From a virus (lineage: Duplodnaviria > Caudoviricetes), in the IMG/VR virus record IMGVR_UViG_3300033076_001145, positions 64,001 to 128,000 of that record: a DNA stretch of 64,000 nt. One strand, 5' to 3'. This document shows positions 900-50,614 of the stretch, piece by piece. Below the pieces are notes generated by a model. The model was given only the letters and a program-made list of their open reading frames with translations. It did not search any database and had not been told where the DNA came from. Made by a program: the position numbers and the translations under genes. Every line of letters starts with the position of its first letter. Position 1 is the first letter of the stretch.

Positions 900-2948
900 A
901 TGATAGAATCAATTGACGACGGAGGAAAAGGTAAAAAAGCAACCACAAGTTCTCAAACACCTGTTTTAGATAATTTTAGTCGTGACTTAATTAAACTTGC
1001 CGAAGAAGGTAAATTAGACCCTGTAGTTGGTAGGGAAAATGAGATTATTAGAATTGCTCAAATTTTGTCTCGTAGAAAGAAAAATAACCCAATTATTATT
1101 GGAGAACCTGGATGTGGAAAAACCGCAATCGTTGAGGGTCTTGCAATGAAAATTTTTGATGGGGATTGCCCAAGAAACTTATTAGAAAAAAGAATTTTGT
1201 CTTTGGATTTGAACTCAATAGTCGCTGGTACAAAATACAGAGGACAATTTGAGGAGAGGTTAAAGGTTATTTTGGAGGAATTACAGACAAATCCAAACAT
1301 CATTTTATTTATTGACGAAATTCACACCATTGTTGGGGCGGGTAATGCATCGGGTTCATTAGATGCTTCAAACATATTAAAACCAGCCCTTTCTCGTGGA
1401 GAAATTCAATGTATTGGAGCAACTACTTTAGACGAATACAAAAAACAAATTGAAAAAGATGGAGCTTTGGACCGAAGATTTCAAAAGGTTATTGTTTCTC
1501 CAGCATCCACAGATGAGACTTTAATTATTTTACAAAATGTAAAAGATAAGTATGAGAATTACCACAAGGTTAATTACTCTGATGAGGTATTGAAAACTTG
1601 TGTTGAACTTGCAGATAGATATATCACAGACCGAGAGTTCCCTGACAAGGCATTCGATATTTTGGATGAAGTAGGGGCAAGAGCTCAGGTCGATGTTAAA
1701 AATCCTGAGGTAATTGAGGAACTTAAAAAAGAATCTCAGGAAATTAAAGAACAAAAACTTTTAGTAGTTAAGAAACAAAACTATGAAATGGCCGCTGAAC
1801 TTAGAGACCGAGAAAAGAAAGTTTTGGGTAAGTTAGAGGTTGAGAAAAAGAAATTTGAAGAGGAATTAATTACCAAGAAAAAAGACATCGCAATTGAGTT
1901 AGTTTATGAAGTGGTTGCAAACATGACAAAGATTCCTGTAACCAAATTATCTTTAGATGATACAAAGAACTTAATCGATTTAGAGGATAGTCTTTCTGAT
2001 TCAGTAATTGGTCAAAAAGAGGCGGTTACCAAAATTGCAAAGGCGATTAGAAGAAATCGTTTGGGAATTAAAGACCCAAACAAACCAATCGGTTCATTTA
2101 TCTTCTTAGGTTCAACAGGGGTTGGTAAAACATTATTGGCAAAAGAACTTGCAAAACAAATATTTGGAAGTGAGGACAATTTAATTAGAGTGGATATGAG
2201 TGAGTTCCAAGAGAAACATTCTGTATCGAGATTAATTGGTTCTCCTCCCGGATATGTTGGGTATGATGAGGGAGGTCAATTGACTGAACAAGTTAAAAAC
2301 AAACCATATTCAGTAGTGTTATTCGATGAAGTTGAGAAAGCTCACAGAGATATTTTCTCATCATTACTACAAGTTTTGGATGAGGGTTATTTGACCGACA
2401 GTTTTGGAAGAAAAGTTAATTTTAAAAACTGTTTAATCATTATGACCTCAAACATCGGGGTTAGAAAATTACAGGAATTTGGTGCTGGCGTCGGATTTGG
2501 AACCTCAAACAATGTATATAAAAATGAAGAGGCGAAGAAATCGATTTTGATGAAAGAACTTAAATCTTATTTCGCACCTGAATTTGTAAATCGATTGGAT
2601 GAAATTATTGTATTCAACACATTAGGTGACGATGATGTTAAGAAAATTGTCAATGTTGAGATGAACAAGTTGGTGTCTCGTTTGACTAAGTTAAAGTATG
2701 ATATTACATTTGACCAAACTTGTATTGATTACATCTCCAAGGTTGGGTTTGATGAACAATACGGAGCCCGACCATTAAAGAGAGCAATACAAGAGAAATT
2801 TGAGGACTTTATCTCGGATGAAGTATTAAGAGAAAATATTTTAATTGAACAAAAATACACTATTTACATAGAAGATGAAACTGTTCAGATAAGACAAGAA
2901 CAACTCGAACAAAAAACAAAAAAACCAAGAAAAAAGAAGGGGGAATAA
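900..2948 (+). CDS. clpC: ClpC/ClpA-type Hsp100 AAA+ ATPase lacking the Clp N-domain
   Basis: Two Walker A motifs (GEPGCGKT, GSTGVGKT), Walker B motifs (LFIDEIH, LFDEVEK), GYVG pore loop, UVR-like middle coil (YEMAAELRD) and VGFG ClpP-docking loop. Only about 20 aa precede LDNFSRDL. Confidence 0.92.
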   Translation: MIESIDDGGKGKKATTSSQTPVLDNFSRDLIKLAEEGKLDPVVGRENEIIRIAQILSRRKKNNPIIIGEPGCGKTAIVEGLAMKIFDGDCPRNLLEKRILSLDLNSIVAGTKYRGQFEERLKVILEELQTNPNIILFIDEIHTIVGAGNASGSLDASNILKPALSRGEIQCIGATTLDEYKKQIEKDGALDRRFQKVIVSPASTDETLIILQNVKDKYENYHKVNYSDEVLKTCVELADRYITDREFPDKAFDILDEVGARAQVDVKNPEVIEELKKESQEIKEQKLLVVKKQNYEMAAELRDREKKVLGKLEVEKKKFEEELITKKKDIAIELVYEVVANMTKIPVTKLSLDDTKNLIDLEDSLSDSVIGQKEAVTKIAKAIRRNRLGIKDPNKPIGSFIFLGSTGVGKTLLAKELAKQIFGSEDNLIRVDMSEFQEKHSVSRLIGSPPGYVGYDEGGQLTEQVKNKPYSVVLFDEVEKAHRDIFSSLLQVLDEGYLTDSFGRKVNFKNCLIIMTSNIGVRKLQEFGAGVGFGTSNNVYKNEEAKKSILMKELKSYFAPEFVNRLDEIIVFNTLGDDDVKKIVNVEMNKLVSRLTKLKYDITFDQTCIDYISKVGFDEQYGARPLKRAIQEKFEDFISDEVLRENILIEQKYTIYIEDETVQIRQEQLEQKTKKPRKKKGE

Positions 2949-2963
2949 ATCCCCCTTTTTTTT
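2936..2963. terminator. Bidirectional intrinsic terminator between convergent genes
   Basis: AAGGGGGA-ATAAA-TCCCCCTT followed by a T run, with an A-rich 5' flank. Confidence 0.7.
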
Positions 2964-3777
2964 ATAAGTTATATTTTGAAACATGGTCAAATTTATATTT
3001 TTTATGACCTAGTTTTTCAATTAGTTTTTGACCAGTTCTTGTTCCCGCAAACACCTCATCAACCACCACATATTCATTTTTGGTGTGGTAGTTATGGTAA
3101 CCAACTGAAAAGTTAATACACGAAAAATCAAATTTCTTTTTTAACTGCCAAACATCTGTATATGGATGTTGCATGAATTTTGGTGAGGATAACATACCCT
3201 CAGTTAAAACTTCTCTTGCCGACTGATGAAATTCAGAATCAGTTTCAAATAGTTTCACACCAAAACAATACTCTGTAACCATATAGTCGTCAGGGGCGTC
3301 AAACTGAATTGCGTAACCAACATTTTCGAAGAACTTGGGGTCGGCTTCTTTTGACCCAATACAACCAACTTCTTCTGAAACAAAAAACGCAGCCTTTAAC
3401 ACATCAAATTCTTCGAGTAACTGAAGACATGCAAAGACACCACACTTGTCATCACCTCCAATCCCTGTTGGTTCCCCAAAGTCATTATATGCCTTTAAGG
3501 AATAACTTTTTTCTCCTTTTGAGTCGGGTAAAGATTCTTCTCTAATATTAATGGTGTCTAATGGATGAACAGTGTCGGTGTGAGCAACAACACAGGGGTA
3601 GAATTCTCCCTCACCAATAGTTCCTTTAGTAACATAAATGTTACCCAAATTATCAATATGGAAATCGTATTTTTTTTCCAACAAATAATCTGTTAGAAAT
3701 TCAATCATTTTGTCCTCATGAAATGAGTGGGTAGGAATAGATAAAACCTTCTTTAAAAAGTCAATATTTTCAATCAT
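2962..3777 (-). CDS. M20/M28-family zinc peptidase-like protein
   Basis: AHTDTV, GGDDKCG, SEEVGCIGS and late YHNYH motifs. Confidence 0.8.
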   Translation of the reverse strand: MIENIDFLKKVLSIPTHSFHEDKMIEFLTDYLLEKKYDFHIDNLGNIYVTKGTIGEGEFYPCVVAHTDTVHPLDTINIREESLPDSKGEKSYSLKAYNDFGEPTGIGGDDKCGVFACLQLLEEFDVLKAAFFVSEEVGCIGSKEADPKFFENVGYAIQFDAPDDYMVTEYCFGVKLFETDSEFHQSAREVLTEGMLSSPKFMQHPYTDVWQLKKKFDFSCINFSVGYHNYHTKNEYVVVDEVFAGTRTGQKLIEKLGHKKYKFDHVSKYNL

Positions 3778-4928: not shown

Positions 4929-5551
4929 GGGGATGTTTTTGGCTTTGACAGGAATGGATTAGTCATAAAACGCACGTCGGGGCTAAGCTAACCCTGTTTA
5001 ACTGGCTTGAATTTTTAAACGGCAACGTAATCAACAAACTTTCTACAATCGGTTTAATCCGTACTGAAGAAGTATCTGTAGCTTAATCTAGGATTAACCT
5101 ACTAGGGGTCGGCAGACATATAACCTTGCAACAGAAGTCGTAGTTGTGGTGTGGTTTCTACCCAAAAAGAAACAAAGTGGAGGATTAGTTCTCAGTAAAC
5201 CGAACCACTATAAAATAAGGGAATTGTGAAGTTTCGGATTGTTTAGAAAAACAATGACCTAAGCGTGTAGTGTTTTATGTCAGACTTTTTTGGACCCGGG
5301 TTTAATGTTGGACCCATAACATAGTAATGTGTTATTAAAAATCGGAAGAATTCAGTGGACTCTTAACAGGTAATGCTGATGACAATACTGAGCCGAGCCT
5401 CGCAGGAAGAGGAAGGTGCAGAGACTAGTGGGATTTAGACGCTTCTAATGTAATACCACACAAGAATCCGACACCCTACATTTGAGGGTGATGATATAGT
5501 CCAGTTAGTAAGGAAACTTATTATGTTTAGCGACCCCCGGCATCTCCACCA
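4929..5551 (+). ncRNA. ssrA: tmRNA interrupted by a group I intron
   Basis: 5' GGGGATG pairs with 3' CATCTCC-ACCA including the G3.U alanine determinant. GGCTTTGAC D-loop-like region. Tag ORF 5021-5086 after TTAAAC encodes GNVINKLSTIGLIRTEEVSVA*. The T-arm CCGGG-TT^CGACC-CCCGG is restored when 5303-5530 is removed. Confidence 0.93.
5303..5530 (+). mobile_element. Group I self-splicing intron (228 nt, no ORF) in the tmRNA T-loop
   Basis: Exon GGGTT pairs with the intron guide GACCC ending in a U.G pair, and the intron ends in G. Core elements: AATTCAGTGGACTC (P), AATACTGAGCCGAG (Q), GCAGAGACTA (R), GATATAGTCC (S). Confidence 0.9.
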
Positions 5552-6447: not shown

Positions 6448-6456
6448 GAAAACTAG

Positions 6457-6530
6457 TACCCCCGACACGATTCGAACGTGTGACCCACAACTTAGAAGGT
6501 TGTTGCTCTATCCAGCTGAGCTACGAGGGC
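6457..6530 (-). tRNA. tRNA-Arg(UCU)
   Basis: Minus strand reads GCCCTCG TA GCTC AGCTGGATA GAGC A ACAAC CT-TCT-AA GTTGT GGGTC ACACG TTCGAAT CGTGT CGGGGGT A. CCA is not encoded (CTA follows). TATCTTTG promoter upstream. Confidence 0.95.
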
Positions 6531-39396: not shown

Positions 39397-41369
39397 CTAT
39401 CTTATGTCGTAGAAGTGTTTTACATTTCTTTTTGAATAACGGTCATTTAAAAAATCCCATAGTTGATTAAATCTGTTTTCATCATCACCACATTCTAATT
39501 CAAAGTTTTCACATACATCTTCTATTAAGTTTGATGTGACAAGATGATTAAATTTATATGGTGTCATTGCATTTAATTGTTTTTTCTTATCTGTGTATCT
39601 TTTTGAAGCCACCTTTAAAACATATTGATATATCTGTTCAAGAGTTTCCATATCTATCCTTCTTTTGAAGTAAATAGGTAGTTCTTTTTCTTCCCTCAAT
39701 ACTGATTCATTAATTACATTTCCCAAATTATCATATTTTAAAAGTTCAGTTTCTATAAAAACATCAGCATTTTTTTTCCTCACATCCCATTCAGTCATCC
39801 AAGTAGGACAAACAACAATATTTCCTGAAGTCCATTTATCAATATCTCTTGATATTTTTGTATCAAACCACGACTCAATGTTTGCCGCAGTATCATCAGA
39901 ATCAAAATAAATTTTAAGTAAAGGTTTATTATTATAAGTTGATTGTTCTATAAATGAAACCTCATCATATAAAACATGAATAATTTGCTTAACAAATTTT
40001 AATTTGTGTCCCTCGGATTCTTCCCTTAATATTCTTCTTATGTTTTCTTGTAGGTTCATATTTCTTCTTCTTTGTATTAACAATCTCCTATACTAACATC
40101 TATAGTATGTCCCCTCACTAAATTATTTCCTAATCTGTGTATAAGGGTGCTTATGTTATATATCGCTTGTCTTGTTTTTTGTTTGTTCACAAAACTATCA
40201 TCAGATAAATTAGGATAATATTTTGGTATTTCCACATATAGTTTTAACGAATGTAGAGTTGGTTTAATTTTAAAATCACATATATTTTCCATATCAGGAA
40301 CATCGAGTCTCATTATTGTATCAACAATGAAAATCATTTCCTTTTGTGTTCCAGTAAAACCAAGAACCTTATATAAATTTTCAACCCCTCCAAACATTTT
40401 TGCGGTTTGGTAAATACCCATATCAGAAACCAAATCTTTAATACTTTCTTGGTCTGAGGTCTCTTCCCTTAATATTGACTCATTTAACGGTTCCTCGTCC
40501 AATTTTGAATTTATGTATTTAATTAATGGCGCATCAAATTTATATACATCTTGGGACATGTTGTAATCTTTTAACAGTTCTTTGTTTGACGAAATAAGAT
40601 TTTGAATTGCGTCATAAAAGGCTTCACTTCTATTCTTTCCCCAACTTAAAGAAATTTTAACATCCCTAACCAACCGCTCAAGTTCATTAGCGGTCACCCT
40701 TCTTCTAATGTAATAAGGTAGTTCAGTTCCTTCCCTTAATATTCTTCTTATGGATTCTTGTAGGTTCATATTATGTATTTGACACTAATTTTTTATATCT
40801 ACTTTTAATTCTATCTTTATAGTAATCTTTTAAACTTTCCATAACCTCACCATACCATTGTGAATCTTCTGGCATTGTACTATATAGTTCGTAATGAATC
40901 CCATCCATTAAAATTGAAATTGTTACATCTATAAACCTATTTAAACTCATAATACTCCCATCTTCTTTATTTGTATTGCGTAACATATTTGATGACATAT
41001 CTAAAGACTCGCTAAACTCCCTCTCTAAATCATTGTTAGGGACTCTACGTCTAATCATCAGGATAGGTTTGGACTCTTCCCTTAGTATTCTTCTTATGGA
41101 TTCTTGCAGGTTCATTTCTTTTTCTTCTTAACACAATTAGGATATTTCTTACCAAACATTGTCTTCATTCCTTTTTGGGTATATCCCGCCCAACACTTTT
41201 CTTGGAGTTCAGATTTATGATTTTCATTTCCACATTTATGACATGTGTATGGGTCGTGTCCGCCTTCAGATAAATTCCAAGACCATCCACACTCCTGACA
41301 AACAATTTTTTTATTTTTGTTATGTAATTCTTCCAATATTATTCTTCTTATGGTCTGTTGTAAATTCAT
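39397..41369 (-). CDS. Four tandem genes with MNLQESIRRILREE leader (39397-40059, 40077-40769, 40771-41115, 41112-41369)
   Basis: Near-identical first 14 codons followed by different bodies; internal NESVLREE / NESILREE repeats. Confidence 0.7.
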
Positions 41370-41430
41370 ATTATTATAAATATCAATTAAAATAAACTGA
41401 AAAAAGTTTTTCAATTTAAGTTTTCTTCCC

Positions 41431-41442: not shown

Positions 41443-42228
41443 ATGGACAAAGTATTAAAAGATTTCATATTCCAACAACTATATGAAGAATTGAGTAATG
41501 TGGAGATTATTCCATATAACTACTCCATTTGGTTTATTGACCGAAAAAACGAATATTGGTATTTTGAATTTGAAAAGGATGGAATGTTGTGGTGGAGATA
41601 TGGATTCTTTCTCAGTTTTTTTAAAGTGTTCTCCCTTAGTGATACCGATTTTGAACCCATTCTATCCGCTTGGGTGGAAGAGGTCTTAAATCATAAGGTA
41701 TCTACAACAGGTCGGGAGAAACCAAGGCAACTTTTTCTGGTGGAAGAGGTCCTAAATCATAAGGTATCTACAACCCAAACTTGTTCATATGGTTTGCCTG
41801 AGTGGGTGGAAGAGGTCTTAAATCATAAGGTATCTACAACCCACAATTGCCACGATATTCTACCAGCAGTGGTGGAAGAGGTCCTAAATCATAAGGTATC
41901 TGCAACTCGGCATTTTGACAACCGTTCTCATCCGTTGGTGGAAGAGGTCTTAAATCATAAGGTATCTACAACTTCTCTGAATTCAGGCCAAATGATTGGT
42001 ATGGTGGAAGAGGTATTAAATCATAAGGTATCTACAACCCAAGTCAGGGAGAACAAAGAATCGGTCATGGTGGAAGAGGTCCTAAATTATAAGGTATCAA
42101 CAACTGAGGACCGCATTTCTCAAAACCCAAGGAAGGTGGAAGAGGTCTTAAATCATAAGGTATCCTCAACCTACTTCGATTGGGATAAAAAGGTAATTTT
42201 GGTGGAAGAGGTATTAAAACAAAAATAA
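41443..42228 (+). CDS. Array-containing protein 1: about 77-aa aromatic N-domain plus 8 x (VEEVLNHKVSTT + 10 variable aa)
   Basis: Open frame through the whole array; 22-aa period. Confidence 0.85.
   Translation: MDKVLKDFIFQQLYEELSNVEIIPYNYSIWFIDRKNEYWYFEFEKDGMLWWRYGFFLSFFKVFSLSDTDFEPILSAWVEEVLNHKVSTTGREKPRQLFLVEEVLNHKVSTTQTCSYGLPEWVEEVLNHKVSTTHNCHDILPAVVEEVLNHKVSATRHFDNRSHPLVEEVLNHKVSTTSLNSGQMIGMVEEVLNHKVSTTQVRENKESVMVEEVLNYKVSTTEDRISQNPRKVEEVLNHKVSSTYFDWDKKVILVEEVLKQK
41673..42218 (+). CRISPR. CRISPR-like array 1: 8 full repeats plus 1 truncated, 8 unique 30-nt spacers
   Basis: Repeat GGTGGAAGAGGTC(T/C)TAAATCATAAGGTATCTACAAC at 41673, 41739, 41805, 41871, 41937, 42003, 42069, 42135, truncated at 42201. 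Exact 66-nt period. Confidence 0.75.
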
Positions 42229-42229
42229 A

Positions 42230-43081
42230 ATGGATAAAATATTAAAAGATTTTATATATCAACAACTATACGAAGAATTGAGTAATGTGGAGATAATTCC
42301 ACATAAGGATTCCATTTGGTTTATTGACCGAGAAAATGAGTATTGGTATTTTGAATTTGATAAGTCAGGAACATTATGGTGGAGATATCATTTCTTTACC
42401 TCGTTTTTTGAGATGTTCTCTATGAAACGCAATGAGTTTACACCCATTCTGTCCGATTGGGTGGAAGAGGTCCTAAATTATAAGGTATCTACAACGACCT
42501 TGATTAGCAAAGGATGCACGGACGAGGTGGAAGAGGTCCTAAATCATAAGGTAACTACAACAAATTTACATACGACACCTGTCCCTGGTAAGGTGGAAGA
42601 GGTCTTAAATCATAAGGTATCCACAACTTTGTCAGCCAATCTCTTGGCACCTTTAATGGTGGAAGAGGTCCTAAATCATAAGGTATCTACAACACGCTGT
42701 ACGGTAATTTATACAACTTCGCTGGTGGAAGAGGTCTTAAATCATAAGGTATCCACATCCAACGCCAAAGAAATTTTACAAAAGCAAACGGTGGAGGATG
42801 TCCTAAATCATAAGGTATCTACAACAATGGCCATCCAATCTTGCAAAGAGAATTGGGTGGAAGAGGTCTTAAATCATAAGGTAATAGAAACCCAAACAGG
42901 GAACGCACCTCCATTGTCATTTGTGAAGGATGTTTTAGATTATAAAGTAACCAAAACTAAAAGAGATTCATCAGTTGATTGGGTTAATGTGGAAGAGATA
43001 TTAACTCATAAGGTATCCTCAACACAAGGATGGGGAGTTGAGGATTGTCACTTGGTTGGGAAGATATTAAATCAAAAATAA
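42230..43081 (+). CDS. Array-containing protein 2: same N-domain plus 9 repeat/variable units
   Basis: Open frame through the whole array; paralog of 41443-42228. Confidence 0.85.
   Translation: MDKILKDFIYQQLYEELSNVEIIPHKDSIWFIDRENEYWYFEFDKSGTLWWRYHFFTSFFEMFSMKRNEFTPILSDWVEEVLNYKVSTTTLISKGCTDEVEEVLNHKVTTTNLHTTPVPGKVEEVLNHKVSTTLSANLLAPLMVEEVLNHKVSTTRCTVIYTTSLVEEVLNHKVSTSNAKEILQKQTVEDVLNHKVSTTMAIQSCKENWVEEVLNHKVIETQTGNAPPLSFVKDVLDYKVTKTKRDSSVDWVNVEEILTHKVSSTQGWGVEDCHLVGKILNQK
42460..43073 (+). CRISPR. CRISPR-like array 2: 9 repeats plus 1 truncated, 9 unique 30-nt spacers, decaying toward the 3' end
   Basis: Repeats at 42460, 42526, 42592, 42658, 42724, 42790, 42856, 42922 (degenerate), 42988 (degenerate), 43054 (truncated and degenerate). 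Confidence 0.75.
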
Positions 43082-43082
43082 A

Positions 43083-43718
43083 ATGGATAAAATATTAAAA
43101 GATTTTATATATCAACAATTATACGAGGAGTTATCAAATGTGGAAATTATTCATCATGGTAAATCAATATGGTTTATTGATAGGGATAATAAATACTGGT
43201 ACTTTGAGCTTGACACATTTAGTAACACTTTATGGTGGAGGTATGATTTCTTTGTATCGTTTTTCAAGGTATTTTCAATGGATAATGAAAAATTCACTCC
43301 AATTATTGCAAATTGGGTTGCAAATATATTAAGTGGTGATTTTGAAGTGTCGAAAAAAGGTTCGGAATTAATTGATGAGGATGGTGTTATAAATAATATT
43401 CTAAATAATAATGGAGTTACTCTTATACCAGCAAATGATGGTATATTTAATAACAGTAGAGCGGAAATTGTAATCAAATCGGAACCTGCAAGTAGGGATT
43501 GGAAGATAGGTGAAGTATTAAAAACTATATCTAAAACCTCACCTCCTTGGGCCTCTCTTATGGTTAATCAAATATTAAAATCCTCATCATCAGTTACTGT
43601 AAATAAAGTATCCAGCTTAGGGAGTTTCCGACAACAATATCATGTGGATGAGGTATTAAAAACAAAATCGTTGTCATACTATCCTGATAGTGTAATAGAT
43701 TCGGTATTAAATAAATAA
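43083..43718 (+). CDS. Third paralog with the same N-domain and an eroded repeat region
   Basis: First about 75 aa match 42230. Remnants include WVANILS, IGEVLKT, MVNQILK..NKVSS, VDEVLKTK and IDSVLNK. Confidence 0.75.
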   Translation: MDKILKDFIYQQLYEELSNVEIIHHGKSIWFIDRDNKYWYFELDTFSNTLWWRYDFFVSFFKVFSMDNEKFTPIIANWVANILSGDFEVSKKGSELIDEDGVINNILNNNGVTLIPANDGIFNNSRAEIVIKSEPASRDWKIGEVLKTISKTSPPWASLMVNQILKSSSSVTVNKVSSLGSFRQQYHVDEVLKTKSLSYYPDSVIDSVLNK

Positions 43719-43723
43719 AGTAA

Positions 43724-45947
43724 TTAACGACATTCCCTCTGATAAGTATTCTTTAAGTGCTCGGTGAATTTTTTACTAGCATAATCCACCATTAACTTAT
43801 AAGACTCTCCCCACTCAACAGTATTTTCATCCATATCGGAGAAGAAGTCCCAATACATAGATGTTATGGCTTTTTCAATTACCGTTTCAACATATTGTTC
43901 CTTTGACAATCCACAAACATTATATTGAACTTTAACTTCTTTAATTGCAAAATCAATCTGCCAATCAATTGCGTGTAGTCTTCTTTTAACACTATTTGGG
44001 ACCTCTGTTGATTCTTTTAATACTCTCTTTATGGATTCTCTGAGTTTCATATTATTATAAATATATTTATATTTATTAAATTATGAAGGATGACAATCAA
44101 TTAGAGGAACTTGTATTTGCATATCTTAATGCTCAGGACTTTGAAATTATCCATAAAGAAGGTTATCATAAATACGCATACTTTGTTTATGACAAGGATG
44201 ACGCTCACGCTCAGATAATGTATCACAAAACCTTTGTTGTGATTTCTAAAGAGTTGTCGGATGAAATTAATTCTTATTTCAATGTTCCTTCAGGTGATAA
44301 CGCATCAGTTGAAATTAAAAATTGGATTGAGTCAAAGTTAAACACTAAAATTGATATTTGGGATGTTAAAATATATGGTGGAATGATGGGCGATGCCTGG
44401 TTATCTGTTAATGAGGATTAAAATATCATATCTTCATCCATTTTATCCTGAATATCTTGTTGAGCAATAGGTAATAGTTCATTCATAATGATGTCATATA
44501 CACCTGGTAAATAAACTTCATCATACCAACTAAACAACTCTTCAACACTATCAAATCTTGTTTTGTCTTGTAACACTTTGAAATAGTCTCCTTCCCCAGC
44601 GATTTCAACAACTACCTGTTTACCAATTTTTCTACTTCTATCCTCCAAAGAAAACCAATCAATTTCAACAGGTGTATAATCAAGTCCATCCCAAAATGGT
44701 GTGGCCATTGCCGTAATAAGTTCAGTATAATTAGGGAGAAATTCTCCCGTTTTAATCTCACCATCCCAATAAAAAATACCATCCAAATTTGTTTGTATAT
44801 TAAATTCATTGTAGGTATCTTTCAATTTACCTTTTTCTAAATTTTCAATTAATAATTCGTTCGCAATTTTTGAATTGATTTCAATTTTTGAAAGTTTGAC
44901 TAATTGTGTCGTACTAACACCAAGGTATTTTTTTGCTTCATATATACCAACCTCGTCAATTAGTTCAAGAATAGAATTTTGAAATTTATCTTCAGAATCT
45001 TCTCTTAATATTTTTCTTATGTTATCCCTTAGATTCATATCATTATAAATACCACTTAAAATGAAAACCCCACTGAGTAGCGAATTCAATGGGGTTAATG
45101 TAGCCTAAACTACAGCGGTCCTAAGCCCACTTTCTTTAATCATAATCTTTTAAATTATACTTATCAATTATCTGTTGGAATATTTGATTTCTATATGTTT
45201 TTGCTAATGTTTCTCTTTTTGGTATAAAAGAATATCCAAATCCCGAACTTCCACTCATTCCTACGACTCTCCAAACAACTCTTCCGTCTACGTAATTAAC
45301 TTTTCGTAATCTAGCATCAAAAGAATATTGCATGTCATTTTTCCTACCAAATTTAAACTTACCTAATTTTTTTTCATCTTTACCAAAATCCTCCAAATTT
45401 AAGTGTTGGACAAGATTGTCATCAAAATACATATTAACCTCATTACCTTCTCTAATATAATAAGGTCCAACATTTTCATTTTTGTAAAATTCCTTTAGGT
45501 TTCCACCATAAACCATTTTTATGTAGTTTGAGACACTACCAAACATTCTTTCAATCTGATACCAACCTATTTCATTATAAAGACCTTTTAAGTCGTTATC
45601 TGACGGCTCTTCAGTTTCTTCTTTTAATATTTTCTTAATTAAATCTTTCATTAAAAAAATATAAAAATTTTATTTGGTAATATACTATGTTTCTTTTGAA
45701 AGTATTTTTTCAAATATACCTCGTTATCGTCGTTGGTCATTTTTCTTATTTGTCTCAAAAACTCGTATTCAACCCATGTATTGTAGTTTATTTCACTAAC
45801 TTCAAACACAGTATTACCATTACTATCCTGAAACTTAATTTTGTCAGGAAACAATACTTGTTTTAACTCACCGTATTCATCTTCAACAAACATGTCAATT
45901 AAATTGACCATAGCTTCTTCAATATGTTTCTCTTTTGACTCACTCAT
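43724..45947. CDS. Cluster of hypothetical paralog-family genes (43724-44050 -, 44083-44421 +, 44418-45038 -, 45136-45651 -, 45651-45947 -)
   Basis: IKRVLKE / IRKILRE / IKKILKEE leaders; 44083 resembles 38034 (YLNAQDF..YFV...AQI...WIESKL). Confidence 0.55.
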
Positions 45948-46334: not shown

Positions 46335-47048
46335 ATGTCAAAATATACCCAAGAGGAAATGTCAGTAATATCATCAATGATGATTACATTATTAGATGAT
46401 TATGATTATCACGGTATAACAATTCGTTTTTCAGGTGATTATAGTAAAAAGAGGATTTATGGTGTTGATTATCAACTTCCTGTATTTAAAATTGACAATC
46501 CAAATGATTTACCGTATTCAATGCCGACTATTATATTGGAATGGGCAGATGAAGAATTAGGTAATATAGGAAAACTTATTAATATACCTGATTTAAGATG
46601 GGAAAGGGAATTTTTGAAATTCTTTAATAAAACTGATAGGGATTACTACATTCCACCCAAAATGAAACAAGGAATTAAAAAGTGCTTAAACACTCCTGAG
46701 GTTGATGTTAAATTTAGAAAAGGTAATACTATATACACTGTTACTGGGTCATTTTCTACAGATGCAGGTTTTGAGATGTATTGGGACAGCTCCGAGGATT
46801 TCAGAATTTTTGTTGATTTTAATATAAGTAAAGTATGGATAGAGGACCTAAATTATAAAGACAAATATGGATTTTTGGAACTTGGTCCATATATTATAGA
46901 TTTACTTTACGATTTTCACTATGACGATAGTAGTATTTTTGAAGGTTTAGTTTGGCATTGTTTTGAAGATTTAATGGGATACCGTAGTTTTATTGACAGG
47001 GATTGGCAATTTATTGCAGTAACTCCAAATTTTGGTTTTCAGAAATAA
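46335..47048 (+). CDS. Hypothetical protein, paralog of 55338-56054
   Basis: Shared I(D/N)NPNDL(P/S)YS and YI(P/S)PK motifs. Confidence 0.55.
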   Translation: MSKYTQEEMSVISSMMITLLDDYDYHGITIRFSGDYSKKRIYGVDYQLPVFKIDNPNDLPYSMPTIILEWADEELGNIGKLINIPDLRWEREFLKFFNKTDRDYYIPPKMKQGIKKCLNTPEVDVKFRKGNTIYTVTGSFSTDAGFEMYWDSSEDFRIFVDFNISKVWIEDLNYKDKYGFLELGPYIIDLLYDFHYDDSSIFEGLVWHCFEDLMGYRSFIDRDWQFIAVTPNFGFQK

Positions 47049-47404
47049 TAGTTAAAAATCTTACAATCAGGATTTAAGTCTTTTAAATCAGGAAACATTA
47101 TATCACCAATACTATCGTTATTAATATGTGAAATATGTAATTCTGTAAAGTATTTGGCATACTTCTCATAAGTTTTCTTTCCTCCAATACACCAATCAAC
47201 ATCCAATATTAACTCGTCTCTTTCATCGATAATCACTTCTCTATTCTTTAGTTTTGGTAAATTAATTGATGTATTATACCCAACAAGTAATCTTTTATTT
47301 AATGTCTGTTTAATAAAATGTGACATATCTTGTTGAGAGTTCCATAACAACTTGTTATCTAAACCAATGTAAGAGAGATTGTTTTTGGCGATTATCGCTT
47401 TCAT
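47039..47404 (-). CDS. folA: Short dihydrofolate reductase
   Basis: AIIA....IGLDNKLLW...DM.HF..T....VG.NT...L.NR...IGG..Y...GD..FP. Confidence 0.8.
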   Translation of the reverse strand: MKAIIAKNNLSYIGLDNKLLWNSQQDMSHFIKQTLNKRLLVGYNTSINLPKLKNREVIIDERDELILDVDWCIGGKKTYEKYAKYFTELHISHINNDSIGDIMFPDLKDLNPDCKIFNYYF

Positions 47405-47433: not shown

Positions 47434-47835
47434 ATGATAGATGAAATTGTTAAACAGTCAATATTTAATTTATTATTTGATGACATGGATGGTGCTGAGG
47501 TCATTGACTTAGGTAAATCCATTTGGGTAATTAATAAAGAAACAAGGTATTGGTATTTCGAATATCAAACCGACACCAAAAATCTTTGGTGGAGATATGA
47601 CTTTTTCTTATCATATTTAACACCATTTGGTATGAATGAGGTTTGGTATCACATTATATTCTCCGAGTTCTTTAATTACTTCCTAAATCAAAAACAATTT
47701 AATTCGGCTGAGGTTAAAAAACTATGTGAAGGTGACTTTGTTTCGATATTGGAGATGGACCAAGTGTTATCTGATGATAGAGAACTACAAATCAAAATGA
47801 AACAAATTATAGATGAAAAAAGGTCAGATGTCTGA
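47434..47835 (+). CDS. Array-free paralog of the 41443 N-domain
   Basis: SIWVINKETRYWYFEY...LWWRYDFFLS matches SIWFIDR.NEYWYFEF...LWWRY.FF.S. Confidence 0.7.
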   Translation: MIDEIVKQSIFNLLFDDMDGAEVIDLGKSIWVINKETRYWYFEYQTDTKNLWWRYDFFLSYLTPFGMNEVWYHIIFSEFFNYFLNQKQFNSAEVKKLCEGDFVSILEMDQVLSDDRELQIKMKQIIDEKRSDV

Positions 47836-47839
47836 CCTT

Positions 47840-48844
47840 TTATATTGTATCCATACTCTCTGAGAATATAACTTCTCGAATCAATCCACAAGACTTTTTA
47901 ATTATGTTTTCAAAATAAATCTTAAAGAATTCTTTATCAACAAAAAGTCTTTCACTTCCATTATGTATTAATTTAAAAGTTCCAACTTGTTCTAAAACAT
48001 CCACTTTATTAACCACAAGATGTGTCACTCCATTAATATTACACGCTTTGATTAAATCATCTAAGTTCGTCCATCCAATTTGTCTTGGTCTTCCTGTTGT
48101 TGAGCCGTATTCATTTCCAACACCTCTAATCATTTCAAATATTTCATTTGGTTCCTCAAATTGTTTGGCCCCAACATATGTATTATAAGCTTTACAAATA
48201 CCATAAACCTTTCGTATCGATTGAGGTGGAACTCCATTCATAATCGCACTTCCAACCGTGCAGTGTGAGGATGTTACATAAGGATAATCACCCCAATCAA
48301 TATCGAGTTCAAACCCTTGTGCTCCTTCAAACAATATTTTGGTTTCTGTCTTATGTAACTCATCATAAATGTCAATCATAAATGACTCTAATATTTCAGC
48401 ATGTTCCGCTCTATTACCAACACGAGAATACTTGTCACTATAACATGGACCATTACCTGTTTTGGTTGTTCCAATCTTTGTGTCTGTTGAGTCTTTATCA
48501 ATATGTTCAGGAGTTATAATATGAACTCTCTTGTCTATAAACAAATTACCGATTACCTCGACACCCGAACTTTCGAGTTGTTGTATTTCTTGTAATAGTT
48601 TAATTGGATTGACCACACATCCAGGTCCAATGATTGATTTTACACCATTTACAATTCCTGATGGAATAAAATGTGTGACAATCTTCTTTCCGTTTTTATA
48701 GATGGTATGTCCAGCATTTCCTCCACCATTATATCTTACCACATGAGTATATTCATTTGGTATTTGACTCAATGTATTACATACTTTTCCTTTTCCAGTG
48801 TCGCCTGATTGCAAATCGACAATTACATCCGCATAATTAATCAT
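47840..48844 (-). CDS. purA: Adenylosuccinate synthetase (short form)
   Basis: GDTGKGK, GGGNAGHT, IGTT..GNGP.Y.DK, EGAQG..LDIDWG.YPYVTSS, EYG.TTGRPR. Confidence 0.92.
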   Translation of the reverse strand: MINYADVIVDLQSGDTGKGKVCNTLSQIPNEYTHVVRYNGGGNAGHTIYKNGKKIVTHFIPSGIVNGVKSIIGPGCVVNPIKLLQEIQQLESSGVEVIGNLFIDKRVHIITPEHIDKDSTDTKIGTTKTGNGPCYSDKYSRVGNRAEHAEILESFMIDIYDELHKTETKILFEGAQGFELDIDWGDYPYVTSSHCTVGSAIMNGVPPQSIRKVYGICKAYNTYVGAKQFEEPNEIFEMIRGVGNEYGSTTGRPRQIGWTNLDDLIKACNINGVTHLVVNKVDVLEQVGTFKLIHNGSERLFVDKEFFKIYFENIIKKSCGLIREVIFSESMDTI

Positions 48845-49466: not shown

Positions 49467-49910
49467 TTATTCACTAACTTGTTTTTCGTCCATTGATAGG
49501 AGTCCTTTCCCGTATTTTTCTAATCTTTCGTAATACCTATCTTTCACATAGTCATGAATTGGAATTGCTCTTCCATCACTATCAATCCTAACAAATGTGA
49601 TATATGTTTGAGTAACCGCTTCTTGGTTTCCAGTATGGACATTATGTTTTCTAACTTCAACATAGAGTTTAATTGATGTTGTTCCAAACTTATCCACCCT
49701 ACCATAAATCTTTAATAGACTACCAACCTTAACAGGACTTTTAAATATTAACTCATCAATCTTAATTGTTACCATTCTTGTGGTGTCACAGATTTGAAAT
49801 GCGTATGATGCCCCAGCTTCGTCAATAAGTCCCATCATACTTCCTCCGAACATGTTCCCACCAATTCCGAGTTCGTTACCTTTACATATGTAAGTTGTGA
49901 TTAATTCCAT
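49467..49910 (-). CDS. Hotdog-fold acyl-CoA thioesterase
   Basis: GNMFGG.MM..IDEAG, F.SPVKVG, GTTSI, TFVRID. Confidence 0.85.
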   Translation of the reverse strand: MELITTYICKGNELGIGGNMFGGSMMGLIDEAGASYAFQICDTTRMVTIKIDELIFKSPVKVGSLLKIYGRVDKFGTTSIKLYVEVRKHNVHTGNQEAVTQTYITFVRIDSDGRAIPIHDYVKDRYYERLEKYGKGLLSMDEKQVSE

Positions 49911-50614
49911 TTTTTTCTTTTTTTATCTAACCATTCTTGTTTTTTTATATCGGCAATTTCTTTACCATATTTTTCAACCCACACATCGTAAAAAGTTTTA
50001 CCATACATTGGGTTTTTGTCACCAGATATCAAATGACCTTTACCGTAAAAAGGATTTTTTTCACCGTTATAGTCTCTCCCCTCAAATGATTTTTTCAAAT
50101 TAGTTAAATGCTCTTTTGTAAATTCTTTACCCTTGTTAGATTCACTAATTTTTCTCTTAGTTTCATCATCTCTTTTTTTACCTTGTAACGGAGCAACTCC
50201 ACCATTTTTATAGTATTTTTTGAGCCCTTCACTTATCCCTTTTTTATTTTTATCAGTCAATGGGACCCCTTTAGTTTTACCTTTCTTACCAATACTAATA
50301 TTTTTTTTCCAATCAGATATTTCATCTTCACTCATATATTGTGTAATATCCCCACCAATACCACCTTCATGAACATTGTAAAAATCTTTTGACTGAACAG
50401 CATCATATTCCAAAATCCATTTCTTTTCAGATATTAATAATTCTTCTCTATTATTACAAATTTCCAAAATTTGTTTTGTAAAATTATTTTTACCGTATTT
50501 TTTTATAGCTCTTTTTATATGAACACCTGAACCAAAATAATTATCATCATTATTCATATCCAGACCAATATATTTTTTACCATTAACTAAATTTGTCGTT
50601 AAATAAATTACCAT
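49901..50614 (-). mobile_element. Free-standing GIY-YIG homing endonuclease with NUMOD3 repeats
   Basis: IYLTTNLVNGKKYIG, YFGSG, FYN..GG, ETKRKISESNKG, GEKNPFYGK. Confidence 0.85.

Follow-up and report, generated by a model that had tools for sequence, protein, structure and literature searches.

We analysed a stretch of 64,000 nucleotides (nt), hereafter the window, which comprises bases 64001–128000 of a 208,634-bp virus record in IMG/VR (IMGVR_UViG_3300033076_001145; Caudoviricetes; guanine-plus-cytosine (GC) content 31%, estimated completeness 71%). Three tandem genes on its plus strand (41443–42228, 42230–43081 and 43083–43718; genes 1, 2 and 3) have an N-terminal domain (N-domain) of approximately 78 amino acids (aa) in common. 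Behind this domain, genes 1 and 2 carry an array of 36-nt repeats and 30-nt spacers that lies within the open reading frame (ORF) and resembles a CRISPR array. The features of the three genes are as follows, with i counting the units from zero.

41443–42228, plus strand: gene 1; 77-aa N-domain at 41443–41673, then a fresh array
41673 + 66i and 41709 + 66i, plus strand: the eight full 36-nt repeats and the eight 30-nt spacers, respectively, of the gene 1 array
42230–43081, plus strand: gene 2; 77-aa N-domain at 42230–42460, then an ageing array
42460 + 66i and 42496 + 66i, plus strand: the nine 36-nt repeats and the spacers of exactly 30 nt, respectively, of the gene 2 array
43083–43718, plus strand: gene 3; 78-aa N-domain at 43083–43316 and a 133-aa tail at 43317–43715, a candidate fossil array

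The repeat is 36 nt long (GGTGGAAGAGGTCYTAAATCATAAGGTATCTACAAC) and the unit in genes 1 and 2 measures exactly 66 bp. The borders between repeat and spacer (36/30 nt) are fixed because matches to bacterial genomes, described below, stop exactly at the edges of the 30-nt spacers. The unit is offset from the codon boundaries; G precedes GTGG in 89% of units, and the position after ACAAC is random. Repeats of gene 1 depart from the consensus at 0–3 sites, and its terminal repeat is truncated (VEEVLKQK, then the stop codon). In gene 2, units 1–6 are off consensus at 0–3 of 35 sites, unit 7, which ends in GTAATAGAAAC, at 6 sites, unit 8 (TGTGAAGGATGTTTTAGATTATAAAGTAACCAAAAC, peptide VKDVLDYKVTKT) at more than 9 and unit 9 (peptide VEEILTHKVSST) at 6; the gene closes with a truncated terminal repeat (VGKILNQK, then the stop codon). 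The original prediction, made from the sequence of the window alone, had described near-consensus 5' repeats and drifted 3' repeats in gene 2, and this description and all the coordinates and sequences quoted with it were correct.

Searches of Pfam and PHROGs gave nothing for genes 1, 2 and 3 or for a fourth gene with the N-domain (47434–47835), and Rfam at gathering thresholds gave no CRISPR repeat family within the window. AlphaFold2 modelled the N-domain with confidence (predicted local distance difference test (pLDDT) 91.7) and predicted disorder for the array tail (pLDDT approximately 30). The first repeat was placed at the end of the last helix of the N-domain, and the repeat encodes this helix end (VEEVLNHKVSTT). 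The N-domain model had no fold match in the PDB (best E = 0.5), and its matches in BFVD were uncharacterised lake-phage paralogues only.

A scan of IMG/VR and public metagenomes with the repeat recovered 127 loci with 174 arrays, nearly all on lake-metagenome contigs and one on a TARA contig. The set for the spacer and polarity counts consisted of 102 unique complete array genes in 24 N-domain groups, drawn from about 120 contigs of lake phages. The period was 66 bp in 784 of the 816 repeat intervals of the 174 arrays and the spacer length 30 nt in 549 of 563 cases, with 2–17 spacers per array. All 174 arrays were located inside an ORF, after an N-domain of 77–79 aa, and no repeat was found past a stop codon. 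The spacers formed 299 mutually unrelated families. A profile search with the N-domain among 1.8 billion proteins yielded 441 representative clusters; the best 149 of them comprised 55 with regular arrays, 17 with two motifs 22 aa apart, 8 with irregular remnants only and 69 with none. Array genes often stand three in tandem, and the arrangement was kept in at least 24 N-domain groups. The exact repeat pattern had no match among 185,579 species genomes, and 50,697 records of cultured phages, searched for distant DNA similarity, returned noise only. Other dialects of the repeat exist (e.g. VEEVLNCKV.TT), and arrays of the VEEVLNCKV type were missed by the search pattern. One protein of 233 aa (P0037) has two tandem N-domains, each followed by 1–2 units of a different dialect (VGDILNRKV); either two array genes were fused or the stop codon between two array genes was lost.

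The spacers originate from bacterial chromosomes. Sixteen distinct protospacers were traced, all in chromosomal genes of one Flavobacteriales family. Five of the spacers in the window match a single genus, represented by 14 genomes, with 0–4 mismatches.

41709–41738, plus strand: gene 1 spacer 1, proximal to the N-domain; 29/30 to miaB of a metagenome-assembled genome (MAG) of a freshwater member of the Flavobacteriales, antisense to miaB
42105–42134, plus strand: gene 1 spacer 7; 29/30 to a transporter-like gene of the same genus
42628–42657, plus strand: gene 2 spacer 3; 28/30 to a 423-codon chromosomal ORF of the same genus, aroA-like by eye
42760–42789, plus strand: gene 2 spacer 5; 26/30 to the same genus
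42826–42855, plus strand: gene 2 spacer 6; 30/30 to a chromosomal gene in three genomes of the genus

The miaB protospacer adjoins topA on a contig with a GC content of 42%. The copy of gene 1 spacer 7 in a close relative of the phage (L191) matches the transporter-like gene at 30/30 positions, and the three genomes with gene 2 spacer 6 are labelled as Crocinitomicaceae bacterium, Flavobacteriales bacterium and 'Chryseobacterium gleum' MAGs. Spacers private to L191 and to a second close relative, L188, match the same 14-genome genus, and in the more distant phages L018 and L022 at least 12 spacers match genomes of the same bacterial family. The target contigs have a GC content of 41–47%, in agreement with the spacers' mean of 43% and compared with 31% for the phage. 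The spacers also have a genome-like dinucleotide bias (TA rho 0.61, z = −13.7 versus stop-filtered random sequence), which together with the matches to bacterial genomes rules out non-templated or random spacers. Neither the 208 kb of the phage itself, 770 kb of flanking sequence from its relatives nor a related phage genome of 240 kb yielded a self-derived protospacer. For two spacers, IMG/VR gave no exact match, and none of the spacers of the window was matched in 3 genomes of Flavobacterium or in 401 genomes of Flavobacteriaceae. With long queries from L018 and L065, the 14-genome genus gave no match, whereas shorter queries against the bacterial family did match. The spacers of seven CRISPR arrays of the source family had no match to the phage or its relatives. 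Judging from the spacer matches, the source bacteria are probably the host of the phage. The original prediction had likened the arrays to CRISPR, and the analogy is stronger than was known then, since stretches of 30 nt from bacterial chromosomal genes make up the spacers.

Twelve of the 16 protospacers are antisense to the bacterial gene, whereas the stop filter alone predicts 48.6% (one-sided p = 0.03), and six of these 12 share one codon phase. Only one of the 16 traced spacers is read in frame and in sense, though that class passes the stop filter best. Since the other 15 are antisense or out of frame, their peptides are new sequence and not copies of bacterial protein, which supports the suggestion made at the outset of a route to de novo protein sequence.

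The arrays are polar. Mean repeat divergence increased from 1.3 mismatches at unit 1 to approximately 5 at units 7–8; 90 of 93 arrays and 22 of 23 N-domain groups showed a positive trend from 5' to 3' (p = 6 × 10⁻⁶). Toward the 3' end, spacer GC dropped from 0.43 to 0.365, in keeping with a drift of old inserts to the composition of the phage. Singleton spacers made up 43% at position 1 versus 13% at the last position, and the order of spacers was conserved in 374 of the 376 array pairs with at least two spacers in common. In comparisons between nearest relatives, 94 unshared units were at the 5' end, 74 were internal and 13 were at the 3' end. Adjacent repeats carry common variants, which is expected from duplication of the repeat.

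The nearest relatives of genes 1 and 2 illustrate the turnover. Gene 1 and its counterpart in L191 differ at 5 of 231 nt of the N-domain, and their 6 and 4 proximal spacers, respectively, have none in common; the only common spacer is the distal EDRISQNPRK (gene 1 spacer 7). Gene 2 and the second array gene of L188 differ at 2 of 231 nt of the N-domain; 4 and 3 proximal spacers differ, the distal ones are shared, and a hybrid repeat in the L188 gene marks a deletion of three units. Near-identical N-domains with different proximal spacers imply that acquisition is fast relative to point mutation. Across 42230–44050 of the window, the adjacent 108-aa minus-strand gene differs from that of L188 at 31 of 327 nt, compared with the 2 of 231 in the gene 2 N-domain, which suggests that the array genes were recently recombined or gene-converted.

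The growth at the N-domain side that the original prediction had proposed is supported by all of this: the divergence gradient, which follows unit position in nearly every N-domain group, the excess of private spacers at the 5' end, the conserved spacers at the trailer end and the nearest relatives of genes 1 and 2. It had also named slippage, with duplicated spacers and random internal gains, as the outcome that would speak against it. No spacer occurs twice in any of the 102 unique arrays, and a tandem-repeat protein expanding by slippage or unequal crossing-over was rejected on this ground; internal differences do occur. Three points count against strictly polar, leader-directed growth. The first repeat is part of the folded domain, and protein constraint on it could contribute to the gradient, although the gradient runs on through units 2–8 and is therefore not merely such constraint. 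Turnover was not purely polar, as 74 of 181 unshared units were internal, at least some of them through repeat-to-repeat deletions. Finally, no conserved leader-like DNA was found upstream of repeat 1, where only the TGG codon directly before the repeat is invariant. The proposed role of the N-domain coding sequence as a leader thus agrees with its position and finds no counterpart in conserved upstream DNA; from its position, this sequence may serve as the leader.

Such internal turnover raises the possibility that no integrase is involved and that the protein of this family is hypervariable through cassette shuffling, with homologous recombination in the constant repeat as the only means of exchanging units. 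The arrays are indeed mosaic, with units common across N-domain groups, many differences between arrays are internal, and a hybrid repeat marks the three-unit deletion in L188. Recombination cannot create units, however, and there are 299 unrelated spacer families, the 16 traced members of which are exact copies, 30 nt long, of bacterial chromosomal genes; it also leaves unexplained why private units are in 7:1 excess at the 5' end relative to the 3' end. As the sole mechanism, recombination is contradicted by the bacterial origin of the spacers and appears very improbable, but it remains a secondary process.

Translation constrains the arrays. Among the 2990 in-frame spacer codons of the 299 families there is no stop codon, compared with 106–193 in each of the other five frames. 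Substitutions among variants of shared spacers numbered 32, 35 and 81 at codon positions 1, 2 and 3, respectively, and comprised 78 synonymous and 70 non-synonymous changes, corresponding to a ratio of non-synonymous to synonymous rates (omega) of approximately 0.22 by site counting and approximately 0.33 from the position ratio. Independent captures of different host alleles were considered as the source of the third-position excess and rejected, since the commonest capture phase places the bacterial wobble base on the second codon position of the phage. As mutation is blind to frame and the wobble falls on position 2, the three-periodicity reflects selection on the phage peptide, and together with the lack of stop codons it means that the array is at least also coding. 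Each insertion preserves the reading frame, because 36 and 30 add up to 66 bp, or 22 codons. In composition, the spacer peptides match translated random DNA, S, L, R and G being commonest.

The arrays could also be neutral scars, left when host Cas1–Cas2 takes a phage sequence for its own repeat, in which case 66 bp would happen to keep the frame and the tails would have no function. The disorder predicted for the tail (pLDDT approximately 30), the random-like peptide composition and the lack of cas genes in the phages (searched for Cas1, Cas2 and Cas13b in this record and for Cas1 in five relatives) are all compatible with such scars. There is also a precedent of sorts: Nivala et al. reportedly found in 2018 that off-target ('neo-CRISPR') integration by Cas1–Cas2 in Escherichia coli creates new arrays, in that a non-CRISPR site is used, duplicated as a repeat and can seed an array. 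Those were, as reported, rare events in cells over-expressing Cas1–Cas2, whereas the process in the lake phages would be persistent, family-wide and frame-preserving. Functionless scars would not be expected to resist amino-acid changes, yet these are selected against both in the spacers (omega approximately 0.2–0.3) and in the gene 3 tail (0.2). Moreover, no stop codon has entered the spacers although the N-domain would survive one, and the arrangement has been kept across the N-domain groups and the 441 representative clusters, often as three tandem genes. We consider neutral scars quite improbable. The original prediction had held that old arrays are domesticated into protein tails, and the stop-free spacers, their low omega and the constraint on the gene 3 tail all point the same way.

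Gene 3 retains the N-domain, which is 61% identical to that of gene 1, and as had been noticed at the outset it keeps only irregular remnants of the repeat. Six copies of the motif [VIM]xx[IV]L[NKS] lie in its tail, 24, 39, 19, 27 and 17 aa apart, whereas residue shuffles have a mean of 0.13 (P < 5 × 10⁻⁵); the mean spacing of approximately 25 aa is near 22. In the DNA of the tail, four windows match the 5' half of the repeat at 13 or more of 20 bases, with 0.21 expected. In a maximum-likelihood tree of the N-domain, gene 3 and its orthologue fall within an array-bearing clade (support 89/90). The orthologues of gene 3 are 93–98% identical and retain the tail, where one indel of 3 codons was counted besides 8 synonymous and 6 non-synonymous changes (ratio of non-synonymous to synonymous polymorphism (pN/pS) 0.2). 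In L188, the position of gene 3 is held by an array gene, one of whose repeats has lost 12 nt in frame. Intermediates of decay exist: in three half-decayed forms (P0051, P0091 and P0096), the proximal units are regular and the distal units are broken by indels.

These observations have to be weighed against the possibility that the gene 3 tail was never an array but arose as an independent extension reusing the helix motif, so that the series of fresh, ageing and fossil arrays would be a coincidence of neighbouring paralogues. Several results stand in its favour and tell against decay: a hidden Markov model (HMM) of the 12-residue repeat did not score above shuffles on the tail, the tail aligned only weakly with those of genes 1 and 2 (z 1.3–2.8) and had no traceable spacer homology, the remnants represent only the first half of the repeat at irregular spacing, and the GC content of the tail (0.32) is phage-like. 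An independent extension would not, however, account for six motifs where 0.13 are expected and for their mean spacing, for the place of the gene 3 N-domain inside array-bearing clades, for the array gene of L188 at the same position or for the half-decayed intermediates. We regard an independent origin as doubtful, and gene 3 as probably a decayed array, its tail apparently descended from one.

Two further paralogues in the window bear on the history of the family.

44083–44421, plus strand: array-less 112-aa paralogue, in which the helix equivalent to the repeat (WIESKLNTKID) continues into folded protein, as judged from the alignment alone
47434–47835, plus strand: distant N-domain paralogue, 35% identical to gene 1 in this domain, with an unrelated 45-aa C-terminal extension and no array

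The former suggests that the repeat began as ordinary coding sequence. The latter had been put forward as the last stage of decay; it does have an N-domain without an array, but given its low identity and its place as a long-branch outgroup in the N-domain tree, it is best read as an old paralogue that says nothing on decay. The proposed series of fresh, ageing and fossil arrays can accordingly be kept with gene 3 as its fossil member, which nests in array clades and has a constrained tail, and without 47434–47835 as its end stage.

In the mechanism that we propose, new units would enter where the N-domain coding sequence meets the first repeat. With every addition, a 30-bp fragment of bacterial chromosome, probably that of the host, would be inserted and the 36-bp repeat duplicated, and insertions with an in-frame stop codon would be purged. 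The product would be a predicted-disordered tail of new peptides, mostly host DNA read antisense or out of frame, under purifying selection. Ageing units would shift away from the growing end while their repeats drift and their spacer GC nears that of the phage; whole units would be lost by repeat-to-repeat recombination, and in-frame indels would blur the period. A copy that no longer acquires units would end like gene 3, with a head and an ordinary-looking tail. We consider it likely that this lake-phage gene family combines polar array growth of the CRISPR type, read as protein, with decay into a protein tail. The more specific proposal, that CRISPR adaptation, by host Cas1–Cas2 or a phage enzyme, writes 30-bp host pieces in frame and so provides both a natural polar recorder and the birth of de novo protein, from fresh to fossil in one cluster, has in our view a slightly better than even chance of being right.

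A fixed 30-bp foreign insert, duplication of a 36-bp repeat and addition at one end are the signature of integration by Cas1–Cas2. No Cas1, Cas2 or Cas13b was found in this phage record, which is 71% complete, and Cas1 was also not found in five records of related phages. Of the CRISPR arrays in 185,579 species genomes, only type VI-B arrays of Flavobacterium, located beside cas13b, share the 3' end of the repeat at this period; they have a 36-nt repeat and 29–31-nt spacers, and their last 14 nt are identical to those of the phage repeat. In Flavobacterium columnare, type VI-B arrays without their own Cas1 are filled in trans by the Cas1–Cas2 of a type II-C system, including from the host genome (PMC8092290). 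As the phages lack cas1, a host type II-C Cas1–Cas2 acting in trans would be the likeliest enzyme here too, and we narrowly favour it as the best candidate integrase.

Several findings in the source bacteria run counter to this proposal. In the source family, cas1 was found in 16 of 236 genomes (7%), mostly MAGs. Arrays beside these cas1 genes have 30-nt spacers and repeats ending in CACAAC, but most of the repeats measure 47 nt and only two 35–36 nt; the cas1-positive genomes richest in protospacer matches (G413 and G474) have arrays with 47-nt repeats or none in the stretch read. Cas13b was found in none of the 236 genomes, while all 3 Flavobacterium controls were positive in the same search. 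A PAM (protospacer-adjacent motif) is no more than hinted at: of the 16 protospacers, a small sample, 13 have a pyrimidine at −3 and 14 have one at −2.

The similarity to type VI-B repeats also raises the question of whether the arrays act mainly as RNA, either as guide RNAs for a host Cas effector (Cas13b or Cas9) or as multi-target antisense RNA against host messages; an open frame would then let ribosomes protect the transcript, for example from Rho-dependent termination. The phage repeat shares not only the 3' 14 nt but also length and orientation with the Flavobacterium repeats beside cas13b, the traced spacers are antisense more often than the stop filter predicts, and arrays without Cas proteins and with host-directed spacers are known from huge phages (PMC7162821). 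Synonymous sites of the repeat are almost invariant (T18 and T21 unchanged in 611–612 of 613 repeats), a conservation that is partly ascertainment, since the repeat itself was the search pattern. Against a role as RNA stand the lack of Cas13b in the 236 genomes of the source family and a repeat that, like its reverse complement, folds no better than shuffles (repeat z = −0.12). The phage had no match resembling an anti-repeat or trans-activating CRISPR RNA (best 22/36 bases, at noise level), and the repeat is only approximately 50% identical, by eye, to the 35–36-nt repeats of the source family. The three-periodic substitutions in the spacers, moreover, point to selection on the peptide and not on base pairing. 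We therefore see a primary role as RNA as unlikely and retain capture of host DNA into a translated tail as the preferred explanation.

The closest known arrays are those of type VI-B in F. columnare (Hoikkala et al. 2021, PMC8092290), which likewise have 36-nt repeats with the same last 14 nt (AAGGTATCTACAAC) and 30-nt spacers, gain units at the end where transcription starts, have no adjacent adaptation genes and may contain spacers from the host chromosome. The phage arrays differ in lying within a protein-coding gene under protein-level selection and in the 5' two-thirds of the repeat (24/36 identical overall, by eye), which begins with GGTG in place of GTTG and lacks the fold expected of a Cas13b hairpin; nor was cas13b found in the phage record or in the 236 source-family genomes. 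Degenerate arrays were also seen among the type VI-B loci themselves. In Flavobacterium sp. J27 (L147; reverse strand, 1790–3270), the locus is split into several short arrays, each bounded by one degenerate repeat (AGTTCATGAATCT..TTTGAAAGGTATCTACAAC) in which only the 3' 19 nt of the repeat are retained. In Flavobacterium covae AL-02-36 (G001, C1:3184982–3188564), the cas13b beside an array with 10 intact repeats is broken by many stop codons and is thus probably a pseudogene.

Other virus-borne arrays share fewer properties. The compact arrays without Cas proteins of huge phages (Al-Shayeb et al. 2020, PMC7162821) are also short (reported median six repeats), occur in jumbo phages without Cas1 or Cas2 and contain some spacers matching genes of the presumed host. 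Those are described as non-coding guide-RNA loci with host-like repeats, whereas the lake-phage arrays form the in-frame, stop-free tail of a conserved gene family, are under purifying selection and decay into a protein tail. Viral mini-arrays and solitary repeat units (RNA anti-CRISPRs; reviewed in PMC11656645; see also Camara-Wilpert et al. 2023, PMC10651486) similarly place repeats on a virus that relies on host Cas proteins; mini-arrays carry 1–2 spacers against related viruses and repeats identical to those of the host. The lake-phage arrays, in contrast, have 2–17 spacers from bacterial chromosomes and repeats identical to no host repeat found, and they are translated. Diversity-generating retroelements (DGRs) are similar in that a dedicated process acting on DNA diversifies one delimited part of a phage protein. 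In DGRs, a template repeat serves to rewrite a single variable region via reverse transcription and adenine mutagenesis, whereas the lake-phage arrays gain unrelated foreign 30-mers as whole units. No DGR template repeat was apparent among the spacers (k-mer sharing within a factor of two of expectation); a reverse transcriptase was not searched for.

Compared with CRISPR arrays in general, the lake-phage arrays have unique spacers of constant length between near-identical repeats within the usual 23–55 nt (here 36 and 30 nt), 16 distinct protospacers in another genome, and polarised addition with degenerate trailer repeats, alongside some internal differences between arrays. They lack cas1–cas2 in the same genome, as far as this phage record and, for Cas1, five relatives were searched. 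In full-text searches of the literature, we found no description of translated CRISPR arrays, or of arrays forming an in-frame, selected protein tail.

A spacer-capture reaction thus seems to write new protein sequence. If this reading holds, spacer integration would not only serve immune memory but would also extend a protein gene by 22-codon modules of foreign DNA in a new frame. Selected protein sequence would then arise from non-coding or antisense sequence along a concrete route that can be dated. With polar growth, the position of a unit in the array indicates its relative age, and the steps of de novo evolution (fresh insert, drift in composition, indels, loss of periodicity) could be read along one gene and across its paralogues. 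The original prediction is in this sense partly supported: its observation was confirmed, polar growth of the CRISPR type and conversion to selected protein are supported, and the leader role of the N-domain and the integrase are what we infer beyond them. Through their spacers, uncultured jumbo phages would also be assigned a probable host, here freshwater Flavobacteriales labelled Crocinitomicaceae. Automatic finders will call such arrays phage CRISPR arrays, and surveys of viral CRISPR may therefore contain them.

Additional features of the window and the family were recorded. The paralogous minus-strand genes of a run surrounding the array genes (39397–41414, 43724–44050 and 44418–45089) all start with MNLQESIRRILRE-like N-termini, and one member of the N-domain family (P0028) has a MKKLIRKILKEE extension resembling them; some members of the family may therefore be packaged. 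Further along the minus strand, translations judged by eye point to a DHFR-like protein (47039–47404), adenylosuccinate synthetase (PurA; 47840–48844), an acyl-CoA thioesterase (49467–49910) and a GIY-YIG endonuclease (49901–50614). At the other end of the window, Rfam identified a full-length transfer-messenger RNA (tmRNA; 4938–5300, 66 bits) that abuts a group I intron (5293–5523, 71 bits), a contact that is unusual in a phage, with a tRNA-Arg(TCT) nearby on the minus strand (6456–6530).

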